A stretch of DNA of 64,000 nt. Source: Candidatus Woesearchaeota archaeon. GTDB taxonomy: Archaea; Nanobdellota; Nanobdellia; SCGC-AAA011-G17; JAGVZF01. How positions within the stretch are numbered: the first letter of the stretch is position 1; every line of letters begins with the position of its first letter. A program made the position numbers and the translations under genes. This document shows positions 18,137-38,081 of this stretch, in pieces. The notes beneath the pieces were generated by a model. The model did not search any database. It was not told where the DNA came from and saw only the letters and a list, made by a program, of their open reading frames with translations. The stretch is from the NCBI GenBank assembly GCA_018302785.1, contig JAGVZF010000013.1, positions 10,787 through 74,786 of the forward strand. Direction: 5' to 3'.

Positions 18137-19396
18137 ATGAACAACGACGACAAATACATAGATTTATTAGAATTTTTGCCACAAAATATTATATGTGGGA
18201 AATTAGAAAAACAATTCCCACTAAGTGTAAAATTAGATAATAAATATTTGTCTCTTTCATATATTACAAATTTGTCAAACCAAACTGGACAAGTTGGAGT
18301 TAAAGAATATTCTTTAACAATTCCAAGATTTCTTTTCAAAAATATTAGAACATTTGAAGTTATTGGATTGCTCCAAGCTGAAATGGGAAAAACTAACAAT
18401 GGAAATCTATCATTTGCAAATCATGAATACAAATTAATTAATTATGTTTTATATTGGTTTAAAAAAGAATTAGAATTTGATGTGAAAAATTGGAAATGGA
18501 GCATAAAACTAAATATGCAAGAACCTACTGACTTAAATTATAAACCCAAAATAGAGAACAAAGTAATAAAGCATTGGACGGAAAGAACTAAAATAACATT
18601 AGAACAATCTTATCCCAAAAAAGTAACTTATATCAGTAATACCAAAAATATCAAATTAAAAGATCATGATTATGGCACGCTGGTTTTAGAACATAAGAAT
18701 AATTTATTTAGTCAAATTATAAAGAATTTTGTAAAAATAATTACATATAGAGAAATAGTAAACTATGAAGCACAACTAATCCAGGGATATATGAAGGCTA
18801 TAATTGCTGGAGAAGGTTGTATAGAAATTTCAAAACAGGATAAAAAGTTTAGGGTACATATTTCGGCATCAAAAGAAGAAGAGAAAGAAATATTCTATCA
18901 ATGTCTAAGAAAGTTAGGGGTTGAAAGCATAAAATACAAGGGAGATAAATTAGTGATTTCAAAGCGTAAAAACAATGTCCAACTTCTTAAACAACGTTTA
19001 ATGACTTTATCTCCAGCAAAATACGCCAAATTTCTAAACATGATGCAACAATATCCAAACATCAAAGAAGAAACTGGCTACTTCAAAGAAAAAGGCAAAA
19101 ACGTTTGGAATAAAATTCCTCAAGAAATAATAGATAAAATTATTGAACTTTATAACTCTGGAATTACAAACACAAAAGAAATAGCAGAAAGATTAGGATT
19201 ACATATTCTAAAAGTTCAAAGAGTTCTCCAAATTAATAATTTAGGAAAAAGAATAACAACAATTCCAGAATCCAAAAGAATGGAAATTGCCAAATATGTT
19301 AAAGATCATCCCGAATTAAATCATGAACAAATTGCAAAACAATTTAATGTTAGTAAATCTGCAGTTAGTAGAGCTAACTTAAAGTATAATCTCTAA
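18137..19396 (+). CDS. Free-standing LAGLIDADG-like (double-motif) protein with two C-terminal HTH modules
   Basis: VIGLLQAEMGK and YMKAIIAGEGCIE (LAGLIDADG-type motifs with Glu). C-terminal ITNTKEIAERLGLHILKVQRVL and NHEQIAKQFNVSKSAVSRA. Confidence 0.6.
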   Translation: MNNDDKYIDLLEFLPQNIICGKLEKQFPLSVKLDNKYLSLSYITNLSNQTGQVGVKEYSLTIPRFLFKNIRTFEVIGLLQAEMGKTNNGNLSFANHEYKLINYVLYWFKKELEFDVKNWKWSIKLNMQEPTDLNYKPKIENKVIKHWTERTKITLEQSYPKKVTYISNTKNIKLKDHDYGTLVLEHKNNLFSQIIKNFVKIITYREIVNYEAQLIQGYMKAIIAGEGCIEISKQDKKFRVHISASKEEEKEIFYQCLRKLGVESIKYKGDKLVISKRKNNVQLLKQRLMTLSPAKYAKFLNMMQQYPNIKEETGYFKEKGKNVWNKIPQEIIDKIIELYNSGITNTKEIAERLGLHILKVQRVLQINNLGKRITTIPESKRMEIAKYVKDHPELNHEQIAKQFNVSKSAVSRANLKYNL

Positions 19397-20470: not shown

Positions 20471-20698
20471 ATGCAAATTGATACGACAAAAATGAGTTCT
20501 AGAGGGCAAGTAGTTATACCTTTAGAAATGAGAAAAGACATTAAAGAAGGAGATAAGTTAATTGTTATTAGAAAAGATGATGAAATAATTATTAAAAAGT
20601 CTATTCCTGAGTCAGCTCTTTTATCTGAAAAATCATTGGCTAAAGCATGGCTGTCAAAAGAGGATGAAGAGGCCTTTGCATATTTTCAAAAAAAATGA
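20471..20698 (+). CDS. AbrB/SpoVT/MazE-type antitoxin
   Basis: SSRGQVVIPLEMRKDIKEGDKLIV. Its stop overlaps the toxin start (ATGA). Confidence 0.75.
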   Translation: MQIDTTKMSSRGQVVIPLEMRKDIKEGDKLIVIRKDDEIIIKKSIPESALLSEKSLAKAWLSKEDEEAFAYFQKK

Positions 20699-21027
20699 AG
20701 TTTAAAAAGTATGATATTATTTTAGTTAATTTTCCTTTCTCAGATCTTAAGACAAGTAAAATCAGACCGGCAGTGGTTATTAAGTCATTGGAAGGGGAAA
20801 ATACTATTCTTTGTCAAATCACAACTAAAAAACGAAGTATATCTAAATACCAAGTAGTTTTAAAACGAAAATCTTGTGAAGGAGATATAAGATTTGACTC
20901 TAATATTTATATTGATATGATATTTACTCTACATGAAAGCCTTGTAATTGGTAAAATTGGCTATATAAGAGATGAAAGAATTAAAGAAGAAATTCAGAAT
21001 AAAATAAAAGAAATGTTTGATCTCTAA
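20695..21027 (+). CDS. MazF/PemK-family toxin (endoribonuclease-type)
   Basis: KYDIILVNFPFSDLKTSKIRPAVVI is typical of PemK/MazF. Paired with the upstream antitoxin. Confidence 0.75.
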   Translation: MKFKKYDIILVNFPFSDLKTSKIRPAVVIKSLEGENTILCQITTKKRSISKYQVVLKRKSCEGDIRFDSNIYIDMIFTLHESLVIGKIGYIRDERIKEEIQNKIKEMFDL

Positions 21028-22069: not shown

Positions 22070-23701
22070 TTGGAAAAATATATCTTTATTATAGGTGGAG
22101 TTATTTCAGGAGTCGGAAAAGGGGTTGCTACAGCGTCAATAGCAAAAATTCTAAAAGAATATGGTCTTAATATATCAGTAATTAAAATTGATCCATATAT
22201 TAATTGTGATGCAGGAACTTTAAGGCCAACAGAGCATGGAGAAGTCTGGGTCACAGAAGACGGCGGAGAAATAGACCAAGATCTAGGAACTTATGAAAGA
22301 TTCCTAGAAAAACCTTTATCAAAATCAAATAGTATAACAACAGGTCAAATATATAAAACTTTAATAGAAAAAGAAAGAAAAGGTGATTTTCTTGGAGAAA
22401 CTGTTCAATATATCCCACATGTTCCAGAAGAAATTAAATTAAGAATAAGGGAAATCGGAAAAAATCATGATATAGTTTTAATTGAAATAGGAGGAACTGT
22501 AGGAGACTATGAAAACATTCCATTTTTATTTGCAGCTAAGAGTTTAGAAAATGACATAGGAAAAGAAAATGTTTCATATATTCTAGTAAGTTATATGCCA
22601 ATTCCTTCTCACATTGATGAAATGAAAACAAAACCAACACAATTAGCAATTAAATTACTAAGAGAAAATGGCATTCAACCTGATTTTATTTTATGCAGAG
22701 GAAAAAAAGCCTTAGATAATGTAAGAAAAAAGAAGCTTGAAAAGTATTCTAATATAAATGCAGAATATATAATATCAGTTCCTGATGTAAGCTCAATTTA
22801 TATTATTCCATTACAACTAGAAAAAGAAAATCTTGGGGAAAAATTGCTTAAAACATTAAATCTTAAAAAGAAAAAAGAACCAAATTGGCAACCATGGATA
22901 AATGCCATAAGTAAATCGCAAAATCCTTCTAAAGAGATCAATATTGCTTTAGTTGGAAAATACCTAGATATAGGAGAATTTCAATTAAAAGATTCTTATC
23001 TTTCAGTAAATGAAGCAATTAATAATTCTGCTTCATTTAATAATATAAAAGTAAAAATAAATTGGCTTGATTCAAAAAATATTGAAAAAGGCCTTGTTGA
23101 TTTTAAAGGTTGTAATGGCATTATAATTCCTGGCGGTTTTGGGAATTCAGGAGTTGAAGGTAAAATTCAAGCAATTAAATATGCAAGAGAAAATAACATT
23201 CCATTTTTAGGCTTGTGTTTTGGTCTTCAATTAGCTGTAGTAGAATTTTCTAGAAATGTTTGTAAATTAAATGCACATTCTACAGAAATTGATCCTGAAG
23301 TAGAACATAATGTTATAGATATTCTTGATGAACAAAGAAACATTAAAGAAAAAGGTGCTACAATGAGATTAGGATCATATAAAGCAATTTTAAAAGATAA
23401 TACTAAAATTAAAGAAATCTATAATTCTAATGAAGTTTATGAAAGACATAGACATAGATATGAAGTTAATCCAAAATATCATTCAATTTTAGAAAAAAAT
23501 GGATTAATATTAAGTGGCTTAAGTCCAAATGGAAAACTTGTTGAATTTATTGAGCTAGAAAATCATCCATTTTTTATAGCCACACAAGCTCATCCAGAGT
23601 TTAAAAGTTCATTATTAAATCCATCTCCTTTATTTAATGCTTTTATTAAAGCATGTTTATTTAATCAAGAAATAGAAAAAGAGTTAATTAAAGAACTTTA
23701 G
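22070..23701 (+). CDS. pyrG: CTP synthase
   Basis: TTG start. GGVISGVGKG, the amidoligase region, and the glutaminase GLCFGLQ and HPEF motifs. Confidence 0.93.
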   Translation: MEKYIFIIGGVISGVGKGVATASIAKILKEYGLNISVIKIDPYINCDAGTLRPTEHGEVWVTEDGGEIDQDLGTYERFLEKPLSKSNSITTGQIYKTLIEKERKGDFLGETVQYIPHVPEEIKLRIREIGKNHDIVLIEIGGTVGDYENIPFLFAAKSLENDIGKENVSYILVSYMPIPSHIDEMKTKPTQLAIKLLRENGIQPDFILCRGKKALDNVRKKKLEKYSNINAEYIISVPDVSSIYIIPLQLEKENLGEKLLKTLNLKKKKEPNWQPWINAISKSQNPSKEINIALVGKYLDIGEFQLKDSYLSVNEAINNSASFNNIKVKINWLDSKNIEKGLVDFKGCNGIIIPGGFGNSGVEGKIQAIKYARENNIPFLGLCFGLQLAVVEFSRNVCKLNAHSTEIDPEVEHNVIDILDEQRNIKEKGATMRLGSYKAILKDNTKIKEIYNSNEVYERHRHRYEVNPKYHSILEKNGLILSGLSPNGKLVEFIELENHPFFIATQAHPEFKSSLLNPSPLFNAFIKACLFNQEIEKELIKEL

Positions 23702-23746
23702 TAAACTATATAAATTCTCTTGAAAACTTGGTAATTCTACAATTTA

Positions 23747-23819
23747 GGGCTCGTGGTCTAGCGGTTATGATAATTCCTTGACGTGGAATTGGTCCCAGGT
23801 TCAAATCCTGGCGGGCCCA
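23747..23819 (+). tRNA. tRNA-Val (anticodon GAC)
   Basis: 73 nt: GGGCTCG/CGGGCCC acceptor stem, anticodon stem ATTCC/GGAAT with loop TTGACGT, T arm CCAGG-TTCAAAT-CCTGG, discriminator A. No encoded CCA. Confidence 0.9.
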
Positions 23820-24335: not shown

Positions 24336-24500
24336 AGACTAAAATTAATTGTTTAATTAATAATGTTTTATTGTAATTCAATAATTGCAAAAAGTTTAAT
24401 AAAAAAGATTTAAATACTACTAAAATTTCAATTATTTGGGGTGTTGAACTTATTAAAATTAATTTAAAATAGAAATATTTATATACTAAAAGTTAAACTC

Positions 24501-24570
24501 CTTAAAAGGTTTAAAAAGCTTAAAAGAGGTTAAAAAAGGCGTAAATAGCTTTTAAAAGGCTTTAAAAGTA
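24501..24570 (+). repeat. Seven tandem degenerate 10-mers of the TTAAAAGGNT type, ending at the start codon of the wHTH gene
   Basis: cttaaaaggt ttaaaaagct taaaagaggt taaaaaaggc gtaaatagct tttaaaaggc tttaaaagta, read directly. Confidence 0.6.
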
Positions 24571-24785
24571 TGATTCCAACAACAGAAGAGCTACTAGAGT
24601 TTATTAGTAAAAAAGAATTAGTAAATCTAACTATGATAGCTAAAAATTATGATATTAAAAATGCTACTGCTTCTGATATTGTTAATGATTTAGTCAAAAA
24701 AAAATTAGTGGAAATAAAACAGATTGGAGGATCAAAAATAGTTATTTTAAAAAAGAGGATTACCAATGAAAAGAGGTCAAATTAG
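24570..24785 (+). CDS. Small winged-helix (MarR/TrmB-like) DNA-binding protein
   Basis: LVNLTMIAKNYDIKNATASDIVNDLVKKKLVEIKQIGGSKIV. Confidence 0.5.
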   Translation: MIPTTEELLEFISKKELVNLTMIAKNYDIKNATASDIVNDLVKKKLVEIKQIGGSKIVILKKRITNEKRSN

Positions 24786-26760
24786 TATATTCATAATATT
24801 AGGAATTATTATAACAATTTTAATAGTAACAATAGTAATATTTAGAAATTCAATATTTAAAAATGAATTTGAAGTTCAATCAGAAAAATCTTTACAAGTT
24901 CCTGAGCAAATAAAACCAATTAAATCTTATATTGATTCATGTGTAGAATTAACAAGTAAAGAAGCAATAGATATTTTAGGATCACAAGGCGGTTATATTA
25001 ATATTCCAATAGACAGAGTTCCAAGAGGTCCATTTAATCAATTCTCTAATTCATTAGAAGTTGTTCCAAATAGCTTAGTTGCTTATTGGTTTTATGAAAC
25101 ATCTAATAATATTCAAAAAACTCAAATTCCATCATTACAATTTATGGAAAATGAAATAAGTAGATATGTAAATTTAAATTTAGATGAATGCCTAAAAGAA
25201 TTATTTTCATCAGAAGAATACACAAAGTATTCAATAAATTTTCAAGGAAGTCCTGAAACTCAAACTAGTATAAATACAAATTATGTAGAAGTAACTGTTA
25301 ATTATCCAGTAAATATTTATCTTAATGAAATAGGAAAATTAATAGAAACTCATTATGTAAAGTTAGACATTCCATTAGGAGAGTTATATGAAACTTCAAA
25401 TGAAATATTAAATAAAGAGTATAATGAAAATTTCTTTAGTAAAAAAACAATAGACATGCTTTCTGTTTATGAAGAAGTTCCATATTCTGGAATTTCTCTA
25501 GACTGTAATACTCCAACATGGTCAAAATCTCAAGTAATTAAAAATTTAAAAAACATAGTAAGCTTAAATATTGGAGCTACAAAATTAAAAGGATCTCAAT
25601 ATACTTTAAGTGATGAATCTCATAAATACTTTGAATTAGAAACTAGCACAAATAATAATCAAATAAATTCATTTTTCTTATATTCACAAAATTGGCCATT
25701 ATCTATAGAAATTTATCCATCAGAAAATGAAATATTATCAGCAGACCAAATTACAAGAGCAACTGGAAATAAAGCAACTGAAGTTCTTTCTAAGATTCTT
25801 TGTTTAAATACATATAATTTCATCTATGACATAAAATATCCAATTTTAATTTCACTTGAAAAAGATAATTACATATTTCAATATGGCTTACAAGTTATAA
25901 TAGATAATAATCAACCAAAAACAAATGAATTAGGAGATCTAGATCTTGATGAAGTTCCATTTGATATTTGTTCTAGAAAAGTTACTCCAATAACTGTAAA
26001 TGTTCTAGGGAAAAATGGAAATCAACTAAAACCAATAGAAGCAGAAGTATCATATCAATGCTTTGCAACATCTTGTTATATAGGTAAAACTCAGCTTGAT
26101 GAATTTAATGATTATAAATTAACAGCTTTATTTCCAGAATGCTTAAATGGTCAGGTAATAGCTGAAAATAAAGATTACTTTACAACAAAAGAAATTATAG
26201 ACTCTAATGAAGAAACTTCTGTTTCTGTAGTAATGAAGCAATATTATAATTTTAATTATGATATTAAAGTCATAGAAAAATCATCTGGATATATAAGAGA
26301 TCTAGCAGAAGATGAAGATGTAATGTTTGAATTTAAGAATTTAGATGAAGATTATACTTTATATTTATCAAAAGATGAAAATGATTTGAAATTAATAGAA
26401 GGAAACTATCAAATAAAATCATATTTATCTAAAAAAAGTGAAACTAAATTTAAAATAGATCAACAAGAAATTTCTAAATGCATAAAAATTCCTAGAGCAG
26501 GCATTCTAGGTTTATTCCTTAAAACAGAGAAATGTGCAACTTCAACAATAGAAGCAACAGAATTAGATGATGTAATTGTTGGAGGAATTGAAACAGAAAT
26601 TAAAATAGATCCATTAAAATCTAATAAAGATAAAGTATCATTATATACTGTATTTGATAAAATTCCAACTTCATATGATGATTTAAGCGAAATAGAAAAA
26701 AACATAGGAAGTAATTCACAAATTCCATCATATAAAAAGCCGGAGTTCCAAAATGAATAA
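24766..26760 (+). CDS. 664-aa extracellular protein with an archaeal class III (prepilin-type) signal peptide
   Basis: The N-terminus MKRGQISIFIILGIIITILIV fits the K/R-G|Q-x-S prepilin-peptidase pattern. The remainder has no recognisable domain. Confidence 0.5.
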   Translation: MKRGQISIFIILGIIITILIVTIVIFRNSIFKNEFEVQSEKSLQVPEQIKPIKSYIDSCVELTSKEAIDILGSQGGYINIPIDRVPRGPFNQFSNSLEVVPNSLVAYWFYETSNNIQKTQIPSLQFMENEISRYVNLNLDECLKELFSSEEYTKYSINFQGSPETQTSINTNYVEVTVNYPVNIYLNEIGKLIETHYVKLDIPLGELYETSNEILNKEYNENFFSKKTIDMLSVYEEVPYSGISLDCNTPTWSKSQVIKNLKNIVSLNIGATKLKGSQYTLSDESHKYFELETSTNNNQINSFFLYSQNWPLSIEIYPSENEILSADQITRATGNKATEVLSKILCLNTYNFIYDIKYPILISLEKDNYIFQYGLQVIIDNNQPKTNELGDLDLDEVPFDICSRKVTPITVNVLGKNGNQLKPIEAEVSYQCFATSCYIGKTQLDEFNDYKLTALFPECLNGQVIAENKDYFTTKEIIDSNEETSVSVVMKQYYNFNYDIKVIEKSSGYIRDLAEDEDVMFEFKNLDEDYTLYLSKDENDLKLIEGNYQIKSYLSKKSETKFKIDQQEISKCIKIPRAGILGLFLKTEKCATSTIEATELDDVIVGGIETEIKIDPLKSNKDKVSLYTVFDKIPTSYDDLSEIEKNIGSNSQIPSYKKPEFQNE

Positions 26761-27742
26761 ACAATTAATTTCATTACTAATGATTGTACTTTTTGTTAGT
26801 TTACCATTTGCTGTAGCTCAAGAAAGAGAAGATCTTGGGGAAGTAATTAATATTAATGTTAATACTTATCAACCAGCAGTAGTTCCATCTAATATTTTGG
26901 CAGAGCAAGATGTTCCAGTCTATGCATATCTAGAAGGAACTACATTAGGATCTTTACTTTTACAAAATAATGCTGTAAACATTCCTCCATTGTATAAACT
27001 ACCAAAAATATCAAAAATAAACATTGCAATAAAAGATCCTAGTAATTATGTAATTTCTGTTCAAGCTAAACCACCATATAAAAAAATTTATGCAAGAGAT
27101 AATAATTCAGTAGACTTAGGTTATTTAATTGTAAGACTAAGAAAAATAAAAAAAGAAAATGAAGTTCCAGATGTTATTAATGTAAATTTAACAGCAAAAA
27201 TAAACTTTGAATTAGATGAAGGTTTTAGTATATTTGGGACTCAAGATTTACTTTTAAGAGAATCAAATGATGAAAATAACTGGAAATCTACTAGAACTGA
27301 AGAATCTGCATTTTGGAATAAAAAAGGATATGTAAGAGCTTATAATATTAAAAGTGGAAAAGCAAGCTTTGAAGTTTATGATGGTTCATTTGATAGTTTA
27401 ACAACATTAAATGACAAAACATCTGATTTTGTTTCAAACTCAATTAGATTTAAAACAGGAGAGTTTGAAGATTCAAATTTACTAGATGATAGATTTAGAT
27501 TGAAAGTGCAAAGAATTTCAGTTCCAGAACCAAAAGCAAATTTAAGAATTATTGATTCCTCTGGAAAAATCTCTGATAAAACAGTAACAAAAGGGATGTC
27601 TATATTAGAAGGAAGTTCATATAGAGTAAAAGAAATAAGACCAAGAAGACCAACAGATAAAGGTCAACTAGAAGAAATTATAATTCAAAAAGGAAATGAT
27701 AAACAAATTTATCTAAGAACTTTATATCAATCCGGTAATTGA
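26753..27742 (+). CDS. Secreted protein (Sec signal, AVA-Q), unknown domain; probably the N-terminal part of a longer frameshifted gene
   Basis: MNKQLISLLMIVLFVSLPFAVAQE. The ORF end overlaps the open frame carrying the lytic-transglycosylase domain. Confidence 0.5.
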   Translation: MNKQLISLLMIVLFVSLPFAVAQEREDLGEVININVNTYQPAVVPSNILAEQDVPVYAYLEGTTLGSLLLQNNAVNIPPLYKLPKISKINIAIKDPSNYVISVQAKPPYKKIYARDNNSVDLGYLIVRLRKIKKENEVPDVINVNLTAKINFELDEGFSIFGTQDLLLRESNDENNWKSTRTEESAFWNKKGYVRAYNIKSGKASFEVYDGSFDSLTTLNDKTSDFVSNSIRFKTGEFEDSNLLDDRFRLKVQRISVPEPKANLRIIDSSGKISDKTVTKGMSILEGSSYRVKEIRPRRPTDKGQLEEIIIQKGNDKQIYLRTLYQSGN

Positions 27743-28175
27743 TGTAGAATCTGGAGGAGATTCTAAAGCAGTTTCATGCACAGGTCCAGCTGGTCTTATG
27801 CAACTAAGTATAGATGCTGCAAATGATGTTAGAACTTCATTAGGCTCAGAATCAGAATATCCAAAAATTCAACATTATCAATTAAATGGACAAGGAAATC
27901 CAATATGCAGCTGCAGTTATTCCAAAGATTGTAGAGATGAGTCTATCGACTGGAGATTTAATAAGGATAAAAATGTTAAAGCAGGAACTCAATATTTACT
28001 TAAATTAATCAACAAATATAATAAAGATTTAAGGCTTGCATTATTGGCATATAATGCTGGTCCTGGTTCAGTAGACCAAGTCTGTCAAACTCCACCTACA
28101 AATATTAAAGAAATAAATTTTGATTATGATTCCTGCAAAAATAACAATATGTGCAAAAAATCTTTAATAAATTAA
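27717..28175 (+). CDS. Lytic transglycosylase (SLT) domain segment in a shifted frame, with no start codon upstream of the catalytic Glu
   Basis: The open frame from 27717 reads ELYINPVIDVESGGDSKAVSCTGPAGLMQL...LLAYNAGPGSV (E-S, GLMQ and AYNAG motifs). The first ATG (27798) lies after the catalytic ES. Confidence 0.6.
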   Translation, partial: ELYINPVIDVESGGDSKAVSCTGPAGLMQLSIDAANDVRTSLGSESEYPKIQHYQLNGQGNPICSCSYSKDCRDESIDWRFNKDKNVKAGTQYLLKLINKYNKDLRLALLAYNAGPGSVDQVCQTPPTNIKEINFDYDSCKNNNMCKKSLIN

Positions 28176-31100
28176 AAGAGCAAACAGGAATAGAATTAGA
28201 TATTACAAAACCAGTATATTTAGATCAAACTACAGTTACAGTATCAACAGAAACGCAAGTAGGATCTCAAAATCCTTGCACTAACGCAAAAATACTTAGT
28301 GATAAAGAAATAGAAGAAACCTCAAGTTATATTGATTTATATTGTACTGCAATAAATGAATTAAAGTCTTTAATTGATAATTATCCAGAATCTCCATTAA
28401 TTTCTTCTTCATATGAATTAATAGCAGATATTTATTTTAATTATCTAAAAAACAAATTATTAGCAAGAGACAACTATGAACTCGCTTTGTTAACAGCTAA
28501 TAGCTTACAAAAAGACTCAATAGAAGTAAAATTAAAAGATTTAAATAAAGCTATTGGAGAAAGCATAGAATATGGTCATGCATTATTAGATGATGAAGCA
28601 CTTGAAGTTTCACTATTAAGAGTAATTCCTAAAGAAGATAATGCAGAAGCAACATTAAGAATTGATTCAACAACAACTAATAAGAAAGTAAATGACCCTT
28701 TATTTGATGGAATTGGAACAGATAATAAAGGAAATTATAGAGTACATCTTATAGAAATACAATCTGATTTTATAAGAATTATAAAAACATATAGTAAAGA
28801 AGATAATAATGGTAAAGAAAATTTACCAGATCCTCAGAGATATACAATAACATTAAACAATAGACTGGAATTAGTTGAAGACAAATCAATAAATAAATTT
28901 CGCTTAATAGAATTACTTGGAACAGATACAAAAGAAGAAGCAATAGTAACTATTTTGCCAGGATCTGGAAAAGAAACAAGTACATCTGATTTCTCTTTAC
29001 ATATTCCAATTGAAAAAAGAGCTATAAGATTTACCCCAGAAGAAATAGATAATAAAATTGCAAGAACTAAAAGATTAATAGACAAGCTTGATTCAGTAAT
29101 TTCTAAATTAGAAAAGACATTAAAAGTGTGGAAAGCAACTTGCCTAATAACAATGGCAGTTTTGACAGTTAAAAATTCATTCTTCAATCCAATTAAGAAC
29201 CTAGCAAGAAGAACAGTCATGAGAGGTCCTGATGGTCAAAGCGGTTGGAATCAAATTTGCAGTGATAGACTCAGAACTGAACTTGATCCAAAAACTGGTA
29301 GGCCACGATTTAGAACTATTGATGAATGTATTGAGGCTAATGCTGATGAAATTGAACAGGAGATTTCTAACACAGAAAATGTTATCAAAAGAACAGAAAC
29401 TCTTGTCAAAAGCCTTGGAAATATTAAAGAAACTTCATCACAAGCTAAGTTATCAGAATTAATAGGAAATGATTTATCACAAGAACAAATTCAAAGGCTT
29501 AATGAAATCGGTAGACTAGGAAATGATGAGGCAAGAAATCTAATTTTGTTAAAGAATTCCAATCTAGACTCACCTCAACAAGCAGAATATAATAAAAAAA
29601 TCGAAGAGTACAAAAAAGAAGCAGATTTAGAAATTGGAATTCAGCAGAAACTTCAAAGTACAACTTATGAAGGTGAGGATAAACTTAGACTAGAATTATC
29701 TTTAAGGAAATCATTACCAGCTACAATAAAAGCTAGGGAATTATATGAATCAACCTCAGATATAGTAAAAAATTACATTACTGAAAATAATTTGGAAGAT
29801 AAAGACTTTAAACCAATATTCTTAGTTTATCCAGAGGAAAATCAGCCAGGGAATCTTACACCACAAGAACAAAAATTCAGCACATTCTATGATGAAAAAA
29901 AAGAAACCAATCTTAAAAGACTCTTTATTGGAAATACTCAGGCAGCCTTAAACGGTCAAGAGATTTATATTCAAACAGACAATAGAGGAAATATTATTAA
30001 TTACTATGTTTCAAGTGGTGGAGTATCAGATGATTCAAGATGTCCAAAATCTTTAGTTTACAGTGGAAGTCCAAGTGTTATTTATGATGATAAAGGTAAG
30101 CCATTAATAATCCCAATACAAACCCCTCAACTAGATAGTAACTATGCAGATTATGTAATATTTGGTTATGATCTAGACACTAAATTGCCAAATCAATATA
30201 GTATATTTAATGTTGGTCTTGATCAAATTATTTCTGAATTAAATAGAAATACAAGTGATGATTGTGTTGTAGAAAATAAAGAAAGCTTTGATGATAAAAC
30301 TCAGACTTCAAAAATAGTATCTCAAGCTTATAATGAAGCATTAAAAGGTTATCAAACAGTTCAAGAAAAAGGAATTAGCTCAAAAGTAAAAATACTTGGA
30401 AAAGAATACTTTGTTAATTATGCATCAAATAGAGTTGATGAGTTACTAAATCCACAATGCACAGATGTATTTAGCATTTCAGATTGCCATATTATGTTTG
30501 GTATTTGTGATCCAGTAATTTGTCCTACTTCAAGATTTGACTTTGGTAATACATGGAAAGTTGACAATGTTGTTCAAACTGGAATCGTTGGAAGTGTTTT
30601 ACTAGGAATTAAAAATTTAGCTCCATATGAACCAGTTCCTGTATGTTTAACTGGAGTTTTAGCAGGCCTCCAGAATATAAAATCTATATTAGAAGGCTTA
30701 AATGAATGTCTTCAAACAGCAAAAGTCAAAGGAGAATATGTAGGAATTTGTGATGCAATAACATCTATTTATATTTGTGAAACTGTTTGGAGGGAAGGTC
30801 TTGCATTATATAGATTAAAAGGAAAAGTAATAAACTGGATGAGTAAAGATATATTACATCAAGATCCTGATGGTGGAGAATATCTTACATTTAAGAATTC
30901 CTTAAAAAATGTTGAAGATAGTGCAAAATTCCTTACAAAAGACTATGCGCAAAATACATTTAAGGATTATGCTGGAAAGAGTTTCGATGAAGTTGGTTCT
31001 GTAATTTGCAGACAAGCAATTTATTCAAGCACTCCAGGAGTAGGCAAATTCCTAGATCAAGTCCTTCAACCAGAAAGCCCTCCTCAATTTACTGCAATAT

Positions 31101-33223
31101 TAAATGTATATCCATGGGCAACACTTCCTGATGAAAAAGGAAGAGTAACTCAAGAGCAATCTAGGTATCAAATTTATTATCATGTATATGCTGGAAATAA
31201 TAAAGCAATTAGATATAGTGTAATATTAAAAGATCCATTAGGAAGACAAATTTATGTTACTGAAAATCCAGAGACTGTAAGAAGAATAAGAAATAGCTTA
31301 GAAGCAGGAGATTATAAAGATAAAACTATTGATTTTGTTGCTGCATCTGGTTATAATGAAGTTTGTATTGAAGTAGATGGTATTGAAAGATGCGGCTTTG
31401 GATCTGTAACAAGTGCATTTTCATTTAATTTCTTAAAAGATGAACTAGTAAAAAATGAATTAAGTAAACCTATTACAAATGAAGAAGAATGTACACTAAC
31501 AAATTCAGGTTTAAGTTCAAGCATTTTATCATTAACAAATACTCAAAGTAAATCAAGTTTTGGAGCAACTTATACAGGTATTATTAGAGAATGCCAATTA
31601 GATAACCCAGGAAAAGGAACTAATGCTCAAGACTGGAAAAAAATTCCAAATAGTGATTGTGGAAAAGATGAAAGAGGCAGAGATTTAGGTTATTGTTGGC
31701 TTTATGTAAATCCAGAAGTACTTAACCTAGATTATGTACAAGGCAATGAAAATTTAATTCTTAACCTAACTGGTTTAACAAAAGAACAAGTAATTACTTT
31801 AGATGATGAAGAAAAAACCAAAGAAAGAATTCAAACATTTAGTTTAGATGAAAGATTTAATGAATTAGCTAGTTTAACTTGTGATGATATAGAAAAAAAC
31901 AAAAAAGAAATAATTACAAAATCAAATGATTTTATTAGAGATTCAAGAGAAGTTATGTCAAAAAGCATGGCTACAAATATAGTTGACGAATTACAGTTTA
32001 ATATAGCAAAAGTATATATAAAATTAGGAGGTTGTGACTATCTAAAAGTACAAGAAACTGAAGCAGTAAAATACTCTGAATTAATAACTGGGATATCTAA
32101 AGTTGCATGTACAGAAGAAATGACTCTAGAATTAAAACAAGAAAAAGAGTTTAGAGATTATAAAATTAGAGTTGCAAGCATATATGCACCTGAAATTAAA
32201 GGAAATAAGGCTGATCCTCTTGATTTCGACGTTGAACCATTTAATCCTACTAGTGGAATTCCACAAGCATCAGAAGATAAAAAATATGATTACAGCAAAT
32301 GCAATGTAGAATTTGATATTATGAGAAATGGTAAACAAATAGATTGCGTTCCAATTAGTTCCTACCAGTTATTTAACTTATTTAGAAAAGCATTAAATGT
32401 TAAAGGAATAAATAAATATTCAGATTGTGAAAATTTACAAATTAAGTTGCTACAGTGTAATCAAGATAATGTTAAGTTAGAAATTAGAACTAATGAATTA
32501 TCAAACTCAGATAAAAATAGAATTGAGAAAGATATTCGAGACGCAATTGCATTAGAAAATCAAAATGGAGATAATATACAAATAAATAAAATAAGTTATG
32601 TGGAAGGTCAAAGCAAAATATTATTGGAGCTTTCTGGTTCAATTAGTCTTAGCTTAAGACAAAAGCTAGATGAAATAATTCAACCATGTCGTCAAACTCT
32701 AGAAATTAGCCAAGCTGCAACAGACTACGAAGGAGAGTTTCAAGACACTGTAGATACAATAAGAGCAGATATTAGAAGTATGTTAAGTGTATTTGACCTT
32801 AATGCCATTAAAATTACAATAAATCCGATAACAGCAAATGAAATTAGAGGATCAACATTACAATTACAAACAAACGAATTTTTATCAGAGCAGCTTGTTT
32901 TAGATATTCAAGAATATTTAAACCGATATGGTATCACATTAGAAATATTAAATGCCAATATTATTTGTTGGGAAATTAACAAACAAAATATTATTAGTGA
33001 AGAAGAATGTCATGGCGAAAATGATGAAAATGCATGTTTTATAAAGAAAGATAAAAAAATTTTCGGATTAGGCTTTATGAAGAAATCAAGTTGTTTGCCA
33101 TGCCAAGATTCAACAACAATGGAAGATCTAAATAATGATAAAGTAAGATGCAACGATAGATGTAAAGACATAGCCCCCTTCCACCTCTACTATTCAGATA
33201 GAGCAAAATTATGTGTAGTATAA
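28151..33223 (+). CDS. 1690-aa Cys-rich giant protein, unknown function; GTG start in the track, no signal peptide of its own
   Basis: ORF track. TPR-like N-terminal region, one internal TM (about residue 330, CLITMAVLTV), and many paired Cys (CTDVFSISDCHIMFGICDPVICP...). Confidence 0.5.
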   Translation: MQKIFNKLKEQTGIELDITKPVYLDQTTVTVSTETQVGSQNPCTNAKILSDKEIEETSSYIDLYCTAINELKSLIDNYPESPLISSSYELIADIYFNYLKNKLLARDNYELALLTANSLQKDSIEVKLKDLNKAIGESIEYGHALLDDEALEVSLLRVIPKEDNAEATLRIDSTTTNKKVNDPLFDGIGTDNKGNYRVHLIEIQSDFIRIIKTYSKEDNNGKENLPDPQRYTITLNNRLELVEDKSINKFRLIELLGTDTKEEAIVTILPGSGKETSTSDFSLHIPIEKRAIRFTPEEIDNKIARTKRLIDKLDSVISKLEKTLKVWKATCLITMAVLTVKNSFFNPIKNLARRTVMRGPDGQSGWNQICSDRLRTELDPKTGRPRFRTIDECIEANADEIEQEISNTENVIKRTETLVKSLGNIKETSSQAKLSELIGNDLSQEQIQRLNEIGRLGNDEARNLILLKNSNLDSPQQAEYNKKIEEYKKEADLEIGIQQKLQSTTYEGEDKLRLELSLRKSLPATIKARELYESTSDIVKNYITENNLEDKDFKPIFLVYPEENQPGNLTPQEQKFSTFYDEKKETNLKRLFIGNTQAALNGQEIYIQTDNRGNIINYYVSSGGVSDDSRCPKSLVYSGSPSVIYDDKGKPLIIPIQTPQLDSNYADYVIFGYDLDTKLPNQYSIFNVGLDQIISELNRNTSDDCVVENKESFDDKTQTSKIVSQAYNEALKGYQTVQEKGISSKVKILGKEYFVNYASNRVDELLNPQCTDVFSISDCHIMFGICDPVICPTSRFDFGNTWKVDNVVQTGIVGSVLLGIKNLAPYEPVPVCLTGVLAGLQNIKSILEGLNECLQTAKVKGEYVGICDAITSIYICETVWREGLALYRLKGKVINWMSKDILHQDPDGGEYLTFKNSLKNVEDSAKFLTKDYAQNTFKDYAGKSFDEVGSVICRQAIYSSTPGVGKFLDQVLQPESPPQFTAILNVYPWATLPDEKGRVTQEQSRYQIYYHVYAGNNKAIRYSVILKDPLGRQIYVTENPETVRRIRNSLEAGDYKDKTIDFVAASGYNEVCIEVDGIERCGFGSVTSAFSFNFLKDELVKNELSKPITNEEECTLTNSGLSSSILSLTNTQSKSSFGATYTGIIRECQLDNPGKGTNAQDWKKIPNSDCGKDERGRDLGYCWLYVNPEVLNLDYVQGNENLILNLTGLTKEQVITLDDEEKTKERIQTFSLDERFNELASLTCDDIEKNKKEIITKSNDFIRDSREVMSKSMATNIVDELQFNIAKVYIKLGGCDYLKVQETEAVKYSELITGISKVACTEEMTLELKQEKEFRDYKIRVASIYAPEIKGNKADPLDFDVEPFNPTSGIPQASEDKKYDYSKCNVEFDIMRNGKQIDCVPISSYQLFNLFRKALNVKGINKYSDCENLQIKLLQCNQDNVKLEIRTNELSNSDKNRIEKDIRDAIALENQNGDNIQINKISYVEGQSKILLELSGSISLSLRQKLDEIIQPCRQTLEISQAATDYEGEFQDTVDTIRADIRSMLSVFDLNAIKITINPITANEIRGSTLQLQTNEFLSEQLVLDIQEYLNRYGITLEILNANIICWEINKQNIISEEECHGENDENACFIKKDKKIFGLGFMKKSSCLPCQDSTTMEDLNNDKVRCNDRCKDIAPFHLYYSDRAKLCVV

Positions 33224-33224
33224 A

Positions 33225-33962
33225 ATGCAATACAAAAATATCTTTAAGATAGTAAAAATAACGTTTTTTGATATCTTATTTATATCAGTTATGATAGAAA
33301 TTTTAATATTCTCTAGAATAAGGTTAAAAAATTATATAGAAAAATTTAATGAAGTAATCCTAAATTTAAATATTCTCCAACCACAAATTCAAAATCAAGA
33401 TCTACAAGCAATAACACAAGTAGAACAAATTGTAAATAATATAAATAATCTCACAAATAAAGCTATCCTAGAATTAATTTTAATTTTTATATTTGTTTAC
33501 TTAATATATAGTATAATTTATTCTTTTAAATGGAAAATTATTATTAAGAAAATATCTTTTAAAACTGAATTTGTTAAAATTTTAATAGTTTCATTACCAA
33601 TTTTTATATTATTATTATTAACAATATTTCTATATATAATGAATCTTAATTTATTATTTTCTATAATTCCATTAATTATTATTTTATTTATTATTCTTAT
33701 TATTTATTCAACAAATAAATCTTTAAAAGAATCTTTAAAACATCTTAAACATATTATAAAAAATAAATTTAATCTACTAATCTCAAACTTTATGTTAATA
33801 TCAATGTTTATTATAATCTCAATATTTCTATTTTCACTAATATTTTCAAAAATTTATACTAAAATATATTCAGACATGTTAATTGATGTAATAATGTTGA
33901 TTTTTACATTATTTATTATAAATATATTAAAAATTTGGCTTTCTAAAATAACAAATGAATAA
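33225..33962 (+). CDS. Polytopic membrane protein, extremely Ile/Leu/Asn-rich
   Basis: ORF track. Starts 2 nt after the giant ORF's stop. Confidence 0.4.
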   Translation: MQYKNIFKIVKITFFDILFISVMIEILIFSRIRLKNYIEKFNEVILNLNILQPQIQNQDLQAITQVEQIVNNINNLTNKAILELILIFIFVYLIYSIIYSFKWKIIIKKISFKTEFVKILIVSLPIFILLLLTIFLYIMNLNLLFSIIPLIIILFIILIIYSTNKSLKESLKHLKHIIKNKFNLLISNFMLISMFIIISIFLFSLIFSKIYTKIYSDMLIDVIMLIFTLFIINILKIWLSKITNE

Positions 33963-34128
33963 TGCGGGAGACAGGGCTTTCGTTAACTTTTAGTTTTGCT
34001 TAAGCTTTTTACTAAAAGCTTAGTTCGAACCTGCGCAGGCACTAAGCCACTAGGTCCTAGGCCTAGCCCGTATAGTCGTACTTTACTACATTTATTTAAA
34101 GGTACATTGACCGCTCCGGCACTCCCGC
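33963..34128 (-). tRNA. Probable tRNA-Leu (anticodon UAG) carrying two non-canonical introns (D-loop and T-loop)
   Basis: Minus strand: GCGGGAG-TG-CCG-GAGCGGTCAA..[hairpin GTACCTTTAAATAAATGTAGTAAAGTAC]..CGG-G-CTAGG-CCTAGGA-CCTAG-TGGCTTAGTGCCTGC-GCAGG-TTCGAAC-[about 47 nt]-CCTGT-CTCCCGC-A. It has a 7-bp acceptor stem and a class II variable arm. C at position 33 is atypical. Confidence 0.55.
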
Positions 34129-34210
34129 ATAAAAAGAACTAAATTTTGAATATATAAATAACTTTTTATTTCATAGTTAAAGGATAATATATACCAAAAA
34201 TCTAGAATTA

Positions 34211-34766: not shown

Positions 34767-37700
34767 TTGAAATCTAAACTTAAAAAGAAGTTGGTATATA
34801 GTAAATTTTTTTATTTATTTTTATTTATTTTTATTTTATTTATCTTAATATTCACAATTAATAAAGTAACAAATTTACCTATTCAAAAATCTCCGTTAAC
34901 TTTGAATCCTCAAGGTACAATTGATACTTCAATAGGAACTCATTTATGGTTAATGGATGATTGTTCTCATAGAGATCCTCAGCGTGGTGCCCCACTTTAT
35001 CTCCCAGCTGATTTCAGTTACGACTTTATAGCTAATAATTTTGATGTTTTTGTGATTGGGGATTGGAGCAATGGTCTTGGTTATAGAGAGCCTATTGTTG
35101 AGGGATATATTAGTCAAATTAAACAAATAAAAAGTGATGCTAAGTTTGTATATTATTCTGATTTCCAGCAGTTTCTTTGGGAAGAAACAACATTAAATGA
35201 GATGGAAGATTCTTTTTTACATAGTACAGATCCAGCAGCCTTGAATCTTATTGCTAATGGAAATAACGTTATTATTGATTGGAATGATGATACAAGAGAA
35301 AAGTATAGGGGAGAAGGTGAACCTATTTTTAGAGTTAGTAGTTACAATATTTATAGAAATAATAATCCCATACCTATACAAAATAGACCATATGGGGCAA
35401 CACAAATTACTGATAATCCAGGAATAGGATTGCATGAATATGAAATAAAAACTAAAAGAGATAGTGGTCAAGAATATAGTTATTCATGGAAAAAATCAGT
35501 AAATGTGGATAATACCATGCCTAGTTTTTATTTAACAGATGGTTATGTTGAAGTAACTGAGAATTCCCCAAATTATAACTTAGTTTTCCATTTAAAGCCA
35601 AATATACCAGATACTTCTGGATTAGATGGTGTTTTGTATATAGATTTAGACCCACAAAACTATGCCTTAGACTTTGGTAATATTCCAAATGAAATTAATC
35701 AGATGACTTGGAATGGGAATGAATATGTATTAACTTTAAATAATATTCCAATGAATCCAAGAAGTCCTGGTAGTTCTGGTAAATTTGGTTATGTTTTCTA
35801 TTTTGAATTAAAGAATAATAATATTGCTGTAGCTAGATTACCTAAAGCAAACAATGAATATTATACAACTAATGTTAATAATAGAATTAAGGCTATAGCA
35901 TATGGTACTTACCAACAGAATATAGCTAGCTTAAGTTGGAGAAACTTTTATGTTCAACATGCCATAGATATTCTAAATAATCTTCAACCTTATTTGGATG
36001 GAGTATATGTAGATGAACCCACTTCAGACCTAAATACAAGAGGAGAAACAATTCCAAAAGACCCAAATGTTAATGTTGCAACTTACAATAGTAATAATAT
36101 TCAGTTTATGCAACAATTAAGAAATACAATTGGTCCTAATAAATTGATTTTTCATAATACTCTAACAGAAGTAAATTTGCAGCCAGATGCAGATGGAGGA
36201 CTTATAGAAGGTTATGTTTATGATACTAATATGCCTGGTGGTTATCTTCTCTTACAAACTTGGATATTCCACATGAACAAAATGTTAGAAGCTGAAAATG
36301 GGGGATTAAGCTTTGCATTACCTGAGGGATTTCAAAATAATTGGCAACTTAGGATGTATATGTTAGCTTCGTATTTACTAACTAAGAAAGATGGAAGTTA
36401 CTTAAATATATATGAATGGGGTTGTCCTAGTCCTTCAACACATATATTCCCAGAGTGGGATAATACTAAAGTTGGTTTAGGGCAAGCTATTGATAATCCA
36501 AATCTAATTTCTGAATTAAATTATGGTAGTACTGACTTATACATTAGAAGATATCAAAATGGATTAGTTGTTGTTAATCCAACAAATTCTACTAAATCCT
36601 TAAATTTAGGGGGTTTGTATAAAGAAGTAGTATTAAATGGTGCTGGAAATGATATTATTTTAGTTGATGTTGCATGGCCTTTAACAATGCAGGGAAATTC
36701 AGGAAAGATTTTAATTGCACAAGTTTGTAGTGATGGAACTCCATATGGTTATTGTAGTGTAAATCAACCATTATTCTGTAACACTAATGGTCAATTAATT
36801 AATAATTGCCAACAATGTAGATGTTCATCTCAACAAAACTGCCAACCTGATGGGAGCTGTCAAGCTATTAATTTACCTCCTACAGCAACTATAACTCAAC
36901 CAACTCAAACAATATTTACTGTAAATACACCAATAAATTATGCAGGAACAGGAACAGATCCTGAAGATGGAAATTTACTAGCTTCTAGTTTATGTTGGAG
37001 TTATGATATTATTGGAGATACACAAGGTTATTTTGATTTAAGTTGTACAAGTAGTGGGACATTTACTCCTTCAATTTTAATAAATAATCAGCCAACAATA
37101 TACACACTTAAGTTAACCGTAATCGACAGTGGACTTCTTACAGATGAAGATACAAAAGATTTAACTATAACTCCATCATGTAGTGATATAGATGGAGATG
37201 GTTATGGAAACCCAGGATCTATACAATGCCCCAATGGATCTCAAATAGATTGTAACGATAATAACATTAATATTAATCCATCAGTAATTGAGAATAATTC
37301 TATAAGATGCTCAGACAATATTGATAATGATTGCGATAATTTGATAGACTTAAATGACCCAGATTGTGTAAATCAATGTATTGATAATGATAGAGATAAT
37401 TATGGAAGTGGACTATTATGTCTTGGACCAGATTGTGATGATAATAATATAAATGTACATAGTAATATAACTTGTAATTACAATGGAAATAGTTGTGGGA
37501 ACTATCAATTATGTTTATTAACCTGTCCTGTCCCTCCAAATGAAATTTGTGGAAATAATATAGATGATAATTGTAATGGTCCAATAGATGAAGGTTGTAC
37601 TCAACAATTGCAATTAAGTTTACAACAAGGCTATAACTTTATTTCTGTTCCATTTGAATTAACTAATAATAATATAAATGATGTATTTGTTGGGATACTT

Positions 37701-38081
37701 AATGATTTAAGTAGAATCTATAGCTTTGATTCCAACTGGTTTGTATATAGAGTTAATCCTAATCCTCCAAGCACTCTAAATTCAGTAGAATCATTAAAGG
37801 GATATATCATAATATTAAATAATCCCACATCTGTAACAATTAGTGGAACTATAGATATAAATAAACAAAGAAACTTAAATCAAGGATGGAACTTAATAAG
37901 TATAAATAGCTTAACTCAGATTCAAATAAATACTGCTTTACAAGGTCTAGATTATACAAGTATATGGAAATTCGATAATAATTTACAAGATTATATACAA
38001 TTAAATCCTTCTATAGATTCATTAGAACCAGGAAAAGCTTACTGGATCTATTTAAATAACCCAGGAATATTTAATCCATAA
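34767..38081 (+). CDS. 1104-aa secreted surface protein: possible TIM-barrel glycosidase-like region, PKD/Ig-like segment, and MopE-type Cys/Asp repeats
   Basis: TTG start, then a TM/signal. YLDGVYVDEPTS (GH114-like, weak). PTATITQPTQ..GTGTDPEDGNL. Repeats CSDIDGDGYGNPG..DCNDNNININP, CSDNIDNDCDNLIDLNDPDC, CIDNDRDNYG..DCDDNNINV, and CGNNIDDNCNGPIDEGC. Confidence 0.5.
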   Translation: MKSKLKKKLVYSKFFYLFLFIFILFILIFTINKVTNLPIQKSPLTLNPQGTIDTSIGTHLWLMDDCSHRDPQRGAPLYLPADFSYDFIANNFDVFVIGDWSNGLGYREPIVEGYISQIKQIKSDAKFVYYSDFQQFLWEETTLNEMEDSFLHSTDPAALNLIANGNNVIIDWNDDTREKYRGEGEPIFRVSSYNIYRNNNPIPIQNRPYGATQITDNPGIGLHEYEIKTKRDSGQEYSYSWKKSVNVDNTMPSFYLTDGYVEVTENSPNYNLVFHLKPNIPDTSGLDGVLYIDLDPQNYALDFGNIPNEINQMTWNGNEYVLTLNNIPMNPRSPGSSGKFGYVFYFELKNNNIAVARLPKANNEYYTTNVNNRIKAIAYGTYQQNIASLSWRNFYVQHAIDILNNLQPYLDGVYVDEPTSDLNTRGETIPKDPNVNVATYNSNNIQFMQQLRNTIGPNKLIFHNTLTEVNLQPDADGGLIEGYVYDTNMPGGYLLLQTWIFHMNKMLEAENGGLSFALPEGFQNNWQLRMYMLASYLLTKKDGSYLNIYEWGCPSPSTHIFPEWDNTKVGLGQAIDNPNLISELNYGSTDLYIRRYQNGLVVVNPTNSTKSLNLGGLYKEVVLNGAGNDIILVDVAWPLTMQGNSGKILIAQVCSDGTPYGYCSVNQPLFCNTNGQLINNCQQCRCSSQQNCQPDGSCQAINLPPTATITQPTQTIFTVNTPINYAGTGTDPEDGNLLASSLCWSYDIIGDTQGYFDLSCTSSGTFTPSILINNQPTIYTLKLTVIDSGLLTDEDTKDLTITPSCSDIDGDGYGNPGSIQCPNGSQIDCNDNNININPSVIENNSIRCSDNIDNDCDNLIDLNDPDCVNQCIDNDRDNYGSGLLCLGPDCDDNNINVHSNITCNYNGNSCGNYQLCLLTCPVPPNEICGNNIDDNCNGPIDEGCTQQLQLSLQQGYNFISVPFELTNNNINDVFVGILNDLSRIYSFDSNWFVYRVNPNPPSTLNSVESLKGYIIILNNPTSVTISGTIDINKQRNLNQGWNLISINSLTQIQINTALQGLDYTSIWKFDNNLQDYIQLNPSIDSLEPGKAYWIYLNNPGIFNP

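Follow-up and report, generated by a model that had tools for sequence, protein, structure and literature searches.

We analysed a 64,000-nucleotide (nt) stretch of DNA from a Candidatus Woesearchaeota archaeon (contig JAGVZF010000013.1, positions 10,787 to 74,786; hereafter the window) in order to understand a gene module at 24570-33962 of its plus strand. The module is built around two genes, one for a 664-amino-acid (aa) protein with an N-terminal class III (prepilin-type) signal, which we call the partner, and one for a giant protein of 2188 aa in its intact form, which has a Sec signal and contains a lytic transglycosylase domain. We put the probability that the module is one operon for a cell-surface complex of Woesearchaeota and Pacearchaeota, presenting murein hydrolases to bacterial walls, at roughly 50%. 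An earlier note on this DNA had drawn attention to a peptidoglycan-cleaving domain in a giant surface protein beside a protein with a class III signal, and this observation is upheld by the Pfam SLT match, the Sec signal and the motif of the class III signal.

We verified the coordinates of the six co-oriented open reading frames (ORFs) in the module, which overlap or are separated by gaps of a few nt. Pfam names two things among them, weak winged-helix matches in a 71-aa ORF and an SLT domain in a 125-aa ORF, and, as had been stated before, a Pfam scan finds no further domain in the large proteins. The earlier note read separate genes for a protein with a Sec signal (329 aa), an SLT protein (125 aa) and a giant without a signal (1690 aa). 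These three are instead pieces of one gene. The 329-aa and 1690-aa ORFs lie in the same frame, and the SLT piece lies between them in the +1 frame (three-frame reading of 27600-28200). Open from 27717, the SLT frame translates as VIDVESGGDSKAVSCTGPAGLMQ (PVIDVESGGDSKAVSCTGPAGLMQLS); it holds no ATG, GTG or TTG start codon between 27717 and 27798, and the ATG at 27798, with which the 125-aa ORF begins, encodes the methionine of the GLMQ motif. Because the catalytic E-S motif of this frame precedes that ATG, the SLT match of the 125-aa ORF is partial and spans only profile positions 57-109 (PF01464, E 1.4e-10, 41.2 bits). Using a conceptual fusion of the three ORFs (2157 aa) as search query, we retrieved ~50 giants of 1600-3700 aa, the best of which (P0002, 2195 aa, 45% identity, 91% coverage) is collinear across both junctions.

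Other assemblies of the same organism locate the breaks. At least 21 contigs of independent assemblies (ENA, JGI and Logan) encode an identical 664-aa partner, and in the four assemblies that span the whole giant gene this gene is a single 2188-aa ORF with an SLT domain. Relative to same-organism assemblies, the window lacks two segments, one of 47 nt following 27732 and one of 49 nt following 28142, and is otherwise 100% identical over 22 kb. Both segments are present in all nine independent assemblies that cover the sites, and the window's junctions are found in none. The 47-nt deletion (27732..27733, plus strand), placed by alignment to the identical locus L086, removes TSTQATQINIQPIVNA, the helix before the catalytic glutamate, and causes a +1 shift. 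The 49-nt deletion (28142..28143, plus strand), placed by assembly comparison, brings back the original frame, the two together amounting to 96 nt or 32 codons. Since the two deletions bracket the SLT domain, it was seen as an out-of-frame ORF without its first helix. Two further claims, that the 1690-aa ORF starts on a GTG within the preceding frame and that the giant has no signal peptide, describe by-products of the deletions, as the intact 2188-aa protein has its Sec signal. We also weighed programmed frameshifting, with the A6 run 28155-28160 and 27717-27740 as candidate sites, and gave it up in view of the 47-nt and 49-nt deletions relative to the independent assemblies.

We judge the deletions to be probably an assembly or gap-closing artefact, and less likely a very recent knockout variant, because two out-of-frame deletions jointly restore the frame and exactly bracket one domain within otherwise identical sequence. 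If the broken gene were real in the strain, it would be a very recent pseudogene with its SLT domain knocked out. This would fit the fact that both deletions are clean and are the sole differences over 22 kb, and several independent assemblies (L088, L091 and L092) break, gap or diverge near 28955, ~800 nt 3' of the SLT domain, which suggests strain heterogeneity inside the giant gene. However, the nine other assemblies all keep both segments, no repeats flank either deletion in the alignment to L086 to account for it, and a frame-restoring pair bracketing one domain is more typical of local mis-assembly or a gap-closing error; we consider a real variant very unlikely. The heterogeneity may itself be a cause of local mis-assembly. 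Either way, the relevant biology is that of the intact 2188-aa protein. The deposited gene model is hereby corrected; in the deposited ORFs alone (in NCBI, the identical J4455_02205 for the 1690-aa ORF, next to J4455_02190 for the 664-aa ORF) one would overlook the signal peptide as well as the transglycosylase's catalytic residue.

The SLT assignment gains strength in the intact protein, where PF01464 scores 58.8 bits against a cut-off of 21.3 bits. The domain forms part 2 of the giant (27733..28142, plus strand, out of frame in the window), delimited by the Pfam match, its motifs and the alignment to MltC. The codon of the catalytic glutamate in the E-S motif lies at 27747-27749, GLMQ at 27792-27803 and AYNAG at 28047-28061. 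The series VIDVESGG...GLMQ...AYNAG has its counterpart in IMQIESS...GLMQ of MltC, and the domain aligns to MltC (9vi7), its best solved relative, across the E-S/GLMQ block. It shares E-S, GLMQ and AYNxG with family-1 lytic transglycosylases such as Slt70, MltC and MltE (PF01464, GH23). Unlike these enzymes, it is a 150-residue module in a 2188-aa archaeal protein, has a cysteine-containing insertion between the motifs, and comes from an organism that makes no murein. By profile and motifs, the giant, a Sec-exported protein, embeds a genuine family-1 lytic transglycosylase domain, whose activity is predicted.

Other giants carry other enzymes. Among 50 giant homologues, 13 have SLT and others have Amidase_3, M23, glucosaminidase or phage-type lysozyme domains, making five classes of murein-acting enzymes in the family; one homologue contains OmpA and one a pretoxin-HINT domain, and ~60% have no Pfam domain at all. 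The pretoxin-HINT carrier is P0049 (2761 aa), and this domain is typical of polymorphic toxins with releasable C-terminal modules. Lytic transglycosylase motifs, found in 32 of 195 giants, occupy one of two slots, either N-proximal (~residues 350-490, as in the window) or C-terminal to the core (~1700-2470). The murein hydrolase domains are accessory and mobile. The strongest argument for the target is that unrelated enzyme classes, sharing only their substrate, were recruited, which supports the bacterial murein cell wall as what the giant probably acts on.

The remainder of the giant is conserved in a different manner. Part 1 (26753..27732, plus strand; collinear with P0002) comprises the Sec signal peptide (~26753-26818) and a conserved N-terminal module. 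The Sec-type signal that had been assigned to the 329-aa ORF is confirmed: MNKQLISLLMIVLFVSLPFAVA|QE, ending AVA|QE, is the sole hydrophobic segment of the intact protein, which contains 44 cysteines, and an N-terminal hydrophobic signal is found in 157 of 171 full-length giant homologues. Part 3 (28143..33223, plus strand) was divided by family alignments into a helical M-module (~28847-29440), a cysteine-rich core (~30068-31750) and a variable, cysteine-rich C-terminal region. The alignments define three conserved modules, N, M and C. The N-module (intact residues ~25-330), formerly the 329-aa ORF, heads the ORF that also encodes the core in 81 of 85 loci. The M-module is helical and centres on IGIEKRAI...KNF, and the C-module has ~560 residues with the motif CDPVICPSSRCDLGG (CDPVICPxSR) and more than 20 cysteines that are invariant in the core over 35-49 homologues. 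With the C-module alone as query against 1.84 billion representatives, we obtained 969 matching clusters (50% identity level), of which 846 have E values below 1e-30, and all full-length proteins among the 150 matches listed are giants. The core has no Pfam match, and a profile search with the giant against PDB sequences returned nothing below E 0.01. In an AlphaFold2 model (mean predicted local distance difference test score, pLDDT, 62; about half of the residues above 70), Foldseek found for the core no match below E 0.001 in PDB or BFVD, giving only generic ApaG/Ig-like beta-sandwich matches at E 0.01 or above. Weak C3b matches suggested a thioester protein of the alpha-2-macroglobulin/C3 type, a reading that was dropped because the conserved ICDEI lacks the glutamine partner.

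The partner gene (24766..26760, plus strand) encodes 664 aa with 10 cysteines, of which residues 1-26 comprise the class III signal MKRG|QISIF and a hydrophobic helix. The protein begins MKRGQISIFIILG, and the reading of this start as class III is borne out by conservation of the motif: homologues show M(x)K-R-G-Q-(V/I)-(T/S)-x-(F/Y) followed by ~20 hydrophobic residues. Using a FlaFind-type pattern (N-terminal [KRDE][GA][ALIFQMVED][ILMVTAS]x3, then a hydrophobic H-domain), which reportedly goes back to Szabo 2007, we found that 49 of 60 partner homologues fit strictly, most of the others being near-matches or truncated gene calls. All 49 have glutamine at +1, and glycine or alanine at -1. Pfam Class_IIIsignal (PF04021) is not listed at E up to 0.1 in a scan of the 60 homologues. 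The EppA-dependent pilins of M. maripaludis are processed at KGQV, KGQI and KGQL and require glutamine at +1 (PMC4371748, Table 1). The partner resembles these pilins (EpdB-E) in [KR]-G-Q-[VI], its invariant +1 glutamine and the ~20 hydrophobic residues that follow; its signal (K-R-G|Q) is of the EppA type, with cleavage predicted. It differs from them in having phenylalanine or tyrosine at +5 instead of glutamate, in the several globular domains of its mature form of ~640 residues, in the absence of adjacent assembly genes, and, in some lineages, in a winged helix-turn-helix (wHTH) domain fused before the signal. The AlphaFold2 model of the partner (mean pLDDT 87.6) shows an N-terminal helix (residues 2-30), alpha/beta domains and three C-terminal beta-sandwich domains. 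Foldseek matches of these sandwich domains include the Gram-positive pilus adhesins SpaC and PitA and the surface-layer stalk protein SlaB, with low TM-scores, while sequence searches gave no relative in Pfam or PDB (PDB-sequence profile search, nothing below E 0.01).

We then asked how widely these genes occur together. In a survey of one genome per GTDB species, at least 588 genomes encode a relative of the giant, and every one of these carries the label Woesearchaeota, Pacearchaeota, Nanoarchaeota/Nanoarchaeia or "archaeon". Gene order was compared over 85 loci. A partner homologue lies directly 5' of the giant in 78 of them, start and stop overlapping, and seven have no partner match upstream of the giant, several being short contigs cut off upstream. 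By gene order, the conserved unit is the partner followed by the giant, with a wHTH gene and a gene for a protein of six transmembrane (TM) segments as accessories. The genes for tRNA-Val(GAC), tRNA-Leu(UAG), L37e, LSM, S8e and TFIIB recur around the loci even though the giants share only ~30% identity, and with this recurrence the module is a vertically inherited core-genome locus and not a mobile element. In the window, its upstream side holds CTP synthase and tRNA-Val(GAC) (22070-23819), and its downstream side minus-strand genes for L37e and LSM, as annotated in the identical locus L086. The earlier note had named two ways in which its reading might fail, namely an SLT assignment that does not survive profile searches, or an unconserved cluster of low-complexity, fast-evolving ORFs; we find that the SLT profile holds, that the cluster is conserved and that its proteins have structured, conserved domains.

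The first gene of the module (24570..24785, plus strand) encodes a 71-aa MarR-like winged-helix protein with many sub-threshold Pfam wHTH matches, and overlaps the partner gene by 20 nt. MarR is reached at E 4.1e-5 by homologues that fuse the wHTH to the partner. In a profile search, 15 of 84 loci, which form a subclade, have a wHTH directly 5' of the partner. In six proteins (P0063, P0066, P0081, P0086, P0091 and P0094; loci L044 and L066) an in-frame fusion places the wHTH ahead of the partner's class III signal, reading VGGSKVVQVKEDKMKKRGQVT, which is an unusual layout, a cytoplasmic DNA-binding "leader" on a prepilin-like protein. About 85 nt 5' of the wHTH start codon, we read a candidate archaeal TATA box, TTTATATA (24478..24485, plus strand), and orthologous loci have a similar (T/C)TTATATA box 80-110 nt 5' of the wHTH start; we infer that TTTATATA is the promoter element. 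Tandem Repeats Finder (TRF) reports 6.7 imperfect 10-nt repeats TTAAAAGGCT with partly palindromic CTTTAAAAG cores at 24502..24568 (plus strand). The array is unique in the window as a cluster of at least four such motifs within 70 nt, and 10 other loci have comparable repeats in the interval from a TATA-like box to the wHTH start. It is a reasonable inference that the wHTH autoregulates the operon through these repeats as its candidate operator.

At the other end of the module, 1 nt past the giant's stop codon, lies the gene for a 245-aa protein (33225..33962, plus strand) without cysteine or Pfam match. It had been called polytopic, and we count ~6 TM segments. A homologue found by jackhmmer lies 3' of the giant in 32 of the 63 loci that extend far enough, mostly within ~40 nt. 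We considered this protein as a DsbB/VKOR-like oxidase, and dropped that reading because it has no cysteine.

Together, these features suggest a surface complex that works as follows. The giant would be exported by Sec and then oxidised, DsbA-like proteins being encoded in the window. The partner would stay in the membrane or in a pilus-like fibre by its N-terminal helix and hold the anchor-less giant, and the 6-TM protein may assist. The giant would be a scaffold that shows murein-hydrolase "cartridges" to the peptidoglycan of a contacted bacterial host or prey. The cartridge here would be the SLT domain, cleaving bonds between N-acetylmuramic acid (MurNAc) and N-acetylglucosamine (GlcNAc), and in relatives an amidase, M23 peptidase, glucosaminidase or lysozyme. 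Local opening of the wall could then lead to attachment or scavenging, and the wHTH would control the operon through the upstream repeats. Several points weigh against this picture. A recognisable murein hydrolase is present in only ~40% of homologous giants, so the universal core, which is unmatched in fold, must do something else. In the window itself the gene is broken. No prepilin peptidase (peptidase_A24), PilB/ArlI ATPase or PilC platform came up when the window's ORFs were scanned with Pfam. Binding of partner and giant, cleavage of the class III signal and SLT activity are all predictions.

The same genes could be read in other ways. The partner and giant might make up a two-component surface layer (S-layer) or canopy like SlaB and SlaA of Sulfolobales, mainly structural, with hydrolases as optional decorations. 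Such a layer would account for the near-universal presence of the locus in the clade as part of the conserved core genome, for the ~60% of giants without a hydrolase domain, and for the adjoining genes with their start/stop overlap, and the beta-sandwich stalk of the partner matches SlaB (8qox_B) at a Foldseek probability of 0.99. The likeness to the SlaA/SlaB pair thus extends to adjacent genes for a membrane-anchored beta-sandwich stalk and a very large outer protein. However, the SlaB match is a generic beta-sandwich with TM-scores of 0.13-0.18, the two systems share no sequence homology, and the polarity of the anchor is reversed, the partner having an N-terminal, pilin-like anchor and not a C-terminal TM segment. 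In addition, the giant is cysteine-rich and carries enzymes, and separately annotated S-layer genes are among the top-expressed in Woesearchaeota (PMC11606122). We regard a mainly structural layer as unlikely. The giant might also be a freely released antibacterial or scavenging effector, similar to polymorphic toxins, whose variable modules lyse bacteria or digest wall debris at a distance with no cell-bound apparatus. That it has no membrane anchor, that its hydrolase modules vary and switch slots, and that one homologue has a pretoxin HINT domain are all consistent with release, and bacteria-killing archaeal peptidoglycan hydrolases are documented and prominent in Nanoarchaeota (PMC12352652). 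Yet the conservation, over at least 588 species, of a dedicated partner gene and of a large core exceeding 1000 residues is atypical for diffusible toxins, no immunity-like gene is evident, and the 6-TM protein and pilin-like partner suggest cell association, which makes a released effector quite unlikely in our view.

Polymorphic toxins (Zhang and Aravind) and the giant genes of Omnitrophota are the predatory or episymbiotic bacterial comparators for such proteins. The giant resembles polymorphic toxins and giant wall-degrading proteins in that enzymatic modules, which can be exchanged, are joined to a conserved part for delivery or scaffolding, and in the PT-HINT domain of the one homologue, but its core is unrelated to theirs in sequence and fold searches, it belongs to an archaeal clade, and it has a dedicated partner protein. 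SLT domains occur in VirB1-type proteins, and this, with the prepilin-type signal encoded next door, is what speaks for a conjugation or type IV secretion system (T4SS) VirB1 analogue, or for a wall-remodelling enzyme of a type IV pilus machine. The T4SS alternative raised in the earlier note found no support. VirB4, VirD4, relaxase, PilB/ArlI, PilC and prepilin peptidase are absent from Pfam scans of the window's ORFs and unlisted near the module in other loci, and T2SSE and T2SSF genes are found neither in the window nor adjoining the module in the other loci inspected. The conserved surroundings of tRNA, ribosomal-protein and TFIIB genes are a vertically inherited housekeeping neighbourhood and not a mobile element, and, as these archaea make no murein themselves, there would be none to remodel. 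A secretion or pilus enzyme is thus extremely improbable. We prefer the surface complex that presents murein hydrolases to bacterial walls.

The central idea has been published, and the locus is a member of a published family. Castelle et al. (2021) described fam00969, a giant family of Woesearchaeota and Pacearchaeota for which bacterial cell-wall attachment was proposed (PMC8204110). For Woesearchaeota, "large lytic murein transglycosylases" were described by Vigneron et al. (2022; PMC9723730), and in a 2025 study peptidoglycan hydrolases featured prominently in Nanoarchaeota (PMC12352652). The first paper already contains the family and the same functional hypothesis, so the system cannot be called "not yet characterised", as the earlier note had it. 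By description, the fam00969 and Vigneron proteins occur in the same taxa, reach ~3000 aa or more, contain SLT/GH23, and were proposed to let episymbionts bind and degrade bacterial walls. The giant described here fits that description with its 2188 aa, Sec signal and SLT domain, and with homologues (about 1500-3700 aa) only from Woesearchaeota, Pacearchaeota or Nanoarchaeia records. In the portions of the three papers available to us, we did not find the pilin-like protein as an obligatory partner, the 6-TM and wHTH genes as accessories, the cysteine-rich core as a part independent of the hydrolase, the two-slot cartridge exchange or the fixed neighbourhood. We found no report in the literature on expression or localisation of the giant.

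The window as a whole has ~28% G+C, and its genes mark it as archaeal: besides TFIIB it encodes a family-B DNA polymerase and a ribonucleotide reductase split by an intein with a LAGLIDADG endonuclease (39494-43417). Two more free-standing LAGLIDADG or HNH-repeat ORFs lie at 18137-19396 and 57591-58409. Directly after the operon is a tRNA-Leu(UAG) gene (33964-34130, minus strand) that was missed by both ARAGORN and Rfam. An Rfam scan of this GC-rich element 3' of the operon gave no match, and orthologous loci then identified it as an intron-bearing tRNA-Leu. Compared with its orthologues in L024, L002, L064 and L021, it has two insertions, one in the D-loop region (35 nt) and one in the T-loop (~46 nt), which look like non-canonical introns, and it has C instead of U at anticodon-loop position 33. 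The next large gene past the module, in the same place in the identical loci L086 and L087, begins with TTG and encodes 1104 aa that include a GHL15 (hypothetical glycosyl hydrolase 15) domain (34767-38081, plus strand). A MazE/PemK toxin-antitoxin pair lies a few kb 5' of the module (20471-21027, plus strand; Pfam labels from L086). Two DsbA/thioredoxin-like proteins are encoded at 60324-61169 and 61870-62709 (both minus strand), and a glutaredoxin fused to an SfLAP-type membrane domain at 6802-7983 (plus strand). The DsbA/thioredoxin-like pair and the glutaredoxin fusion may be extracytoplasmic disulfide machinery for cysteine-rich surface proteins.

A more far-reaching proposal, which we consider quite unlikely as a whole, is that the partner-giant pair would define Woesearchaeales and Pacearchaeales as their machine for host contact or for the envelope. 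Such a two-component surface scaffold would combine an unmatched cysteine-rich fold with interchangeable hydrolase cartridges. In some lineages, the MarR-type wHTH leader on the class III signal might tie surface assembly to transcription through prepilin-peptidase processing or membrane tethering. The present analysis defines the actual unit (partner and giant, with accessory 6-TM and wHTH genes) and supplies concrete proteins and motifs for experiments. Woesearchaeota and Pacearchaeota are among the most widespread uncultivated archaea, and their hosts and lifestyle are unknown; for many of them, a lineage-wide surface module with exchangeable murein-targeting enzymes gives the strongest genomic indication of an interaction with bacteria.

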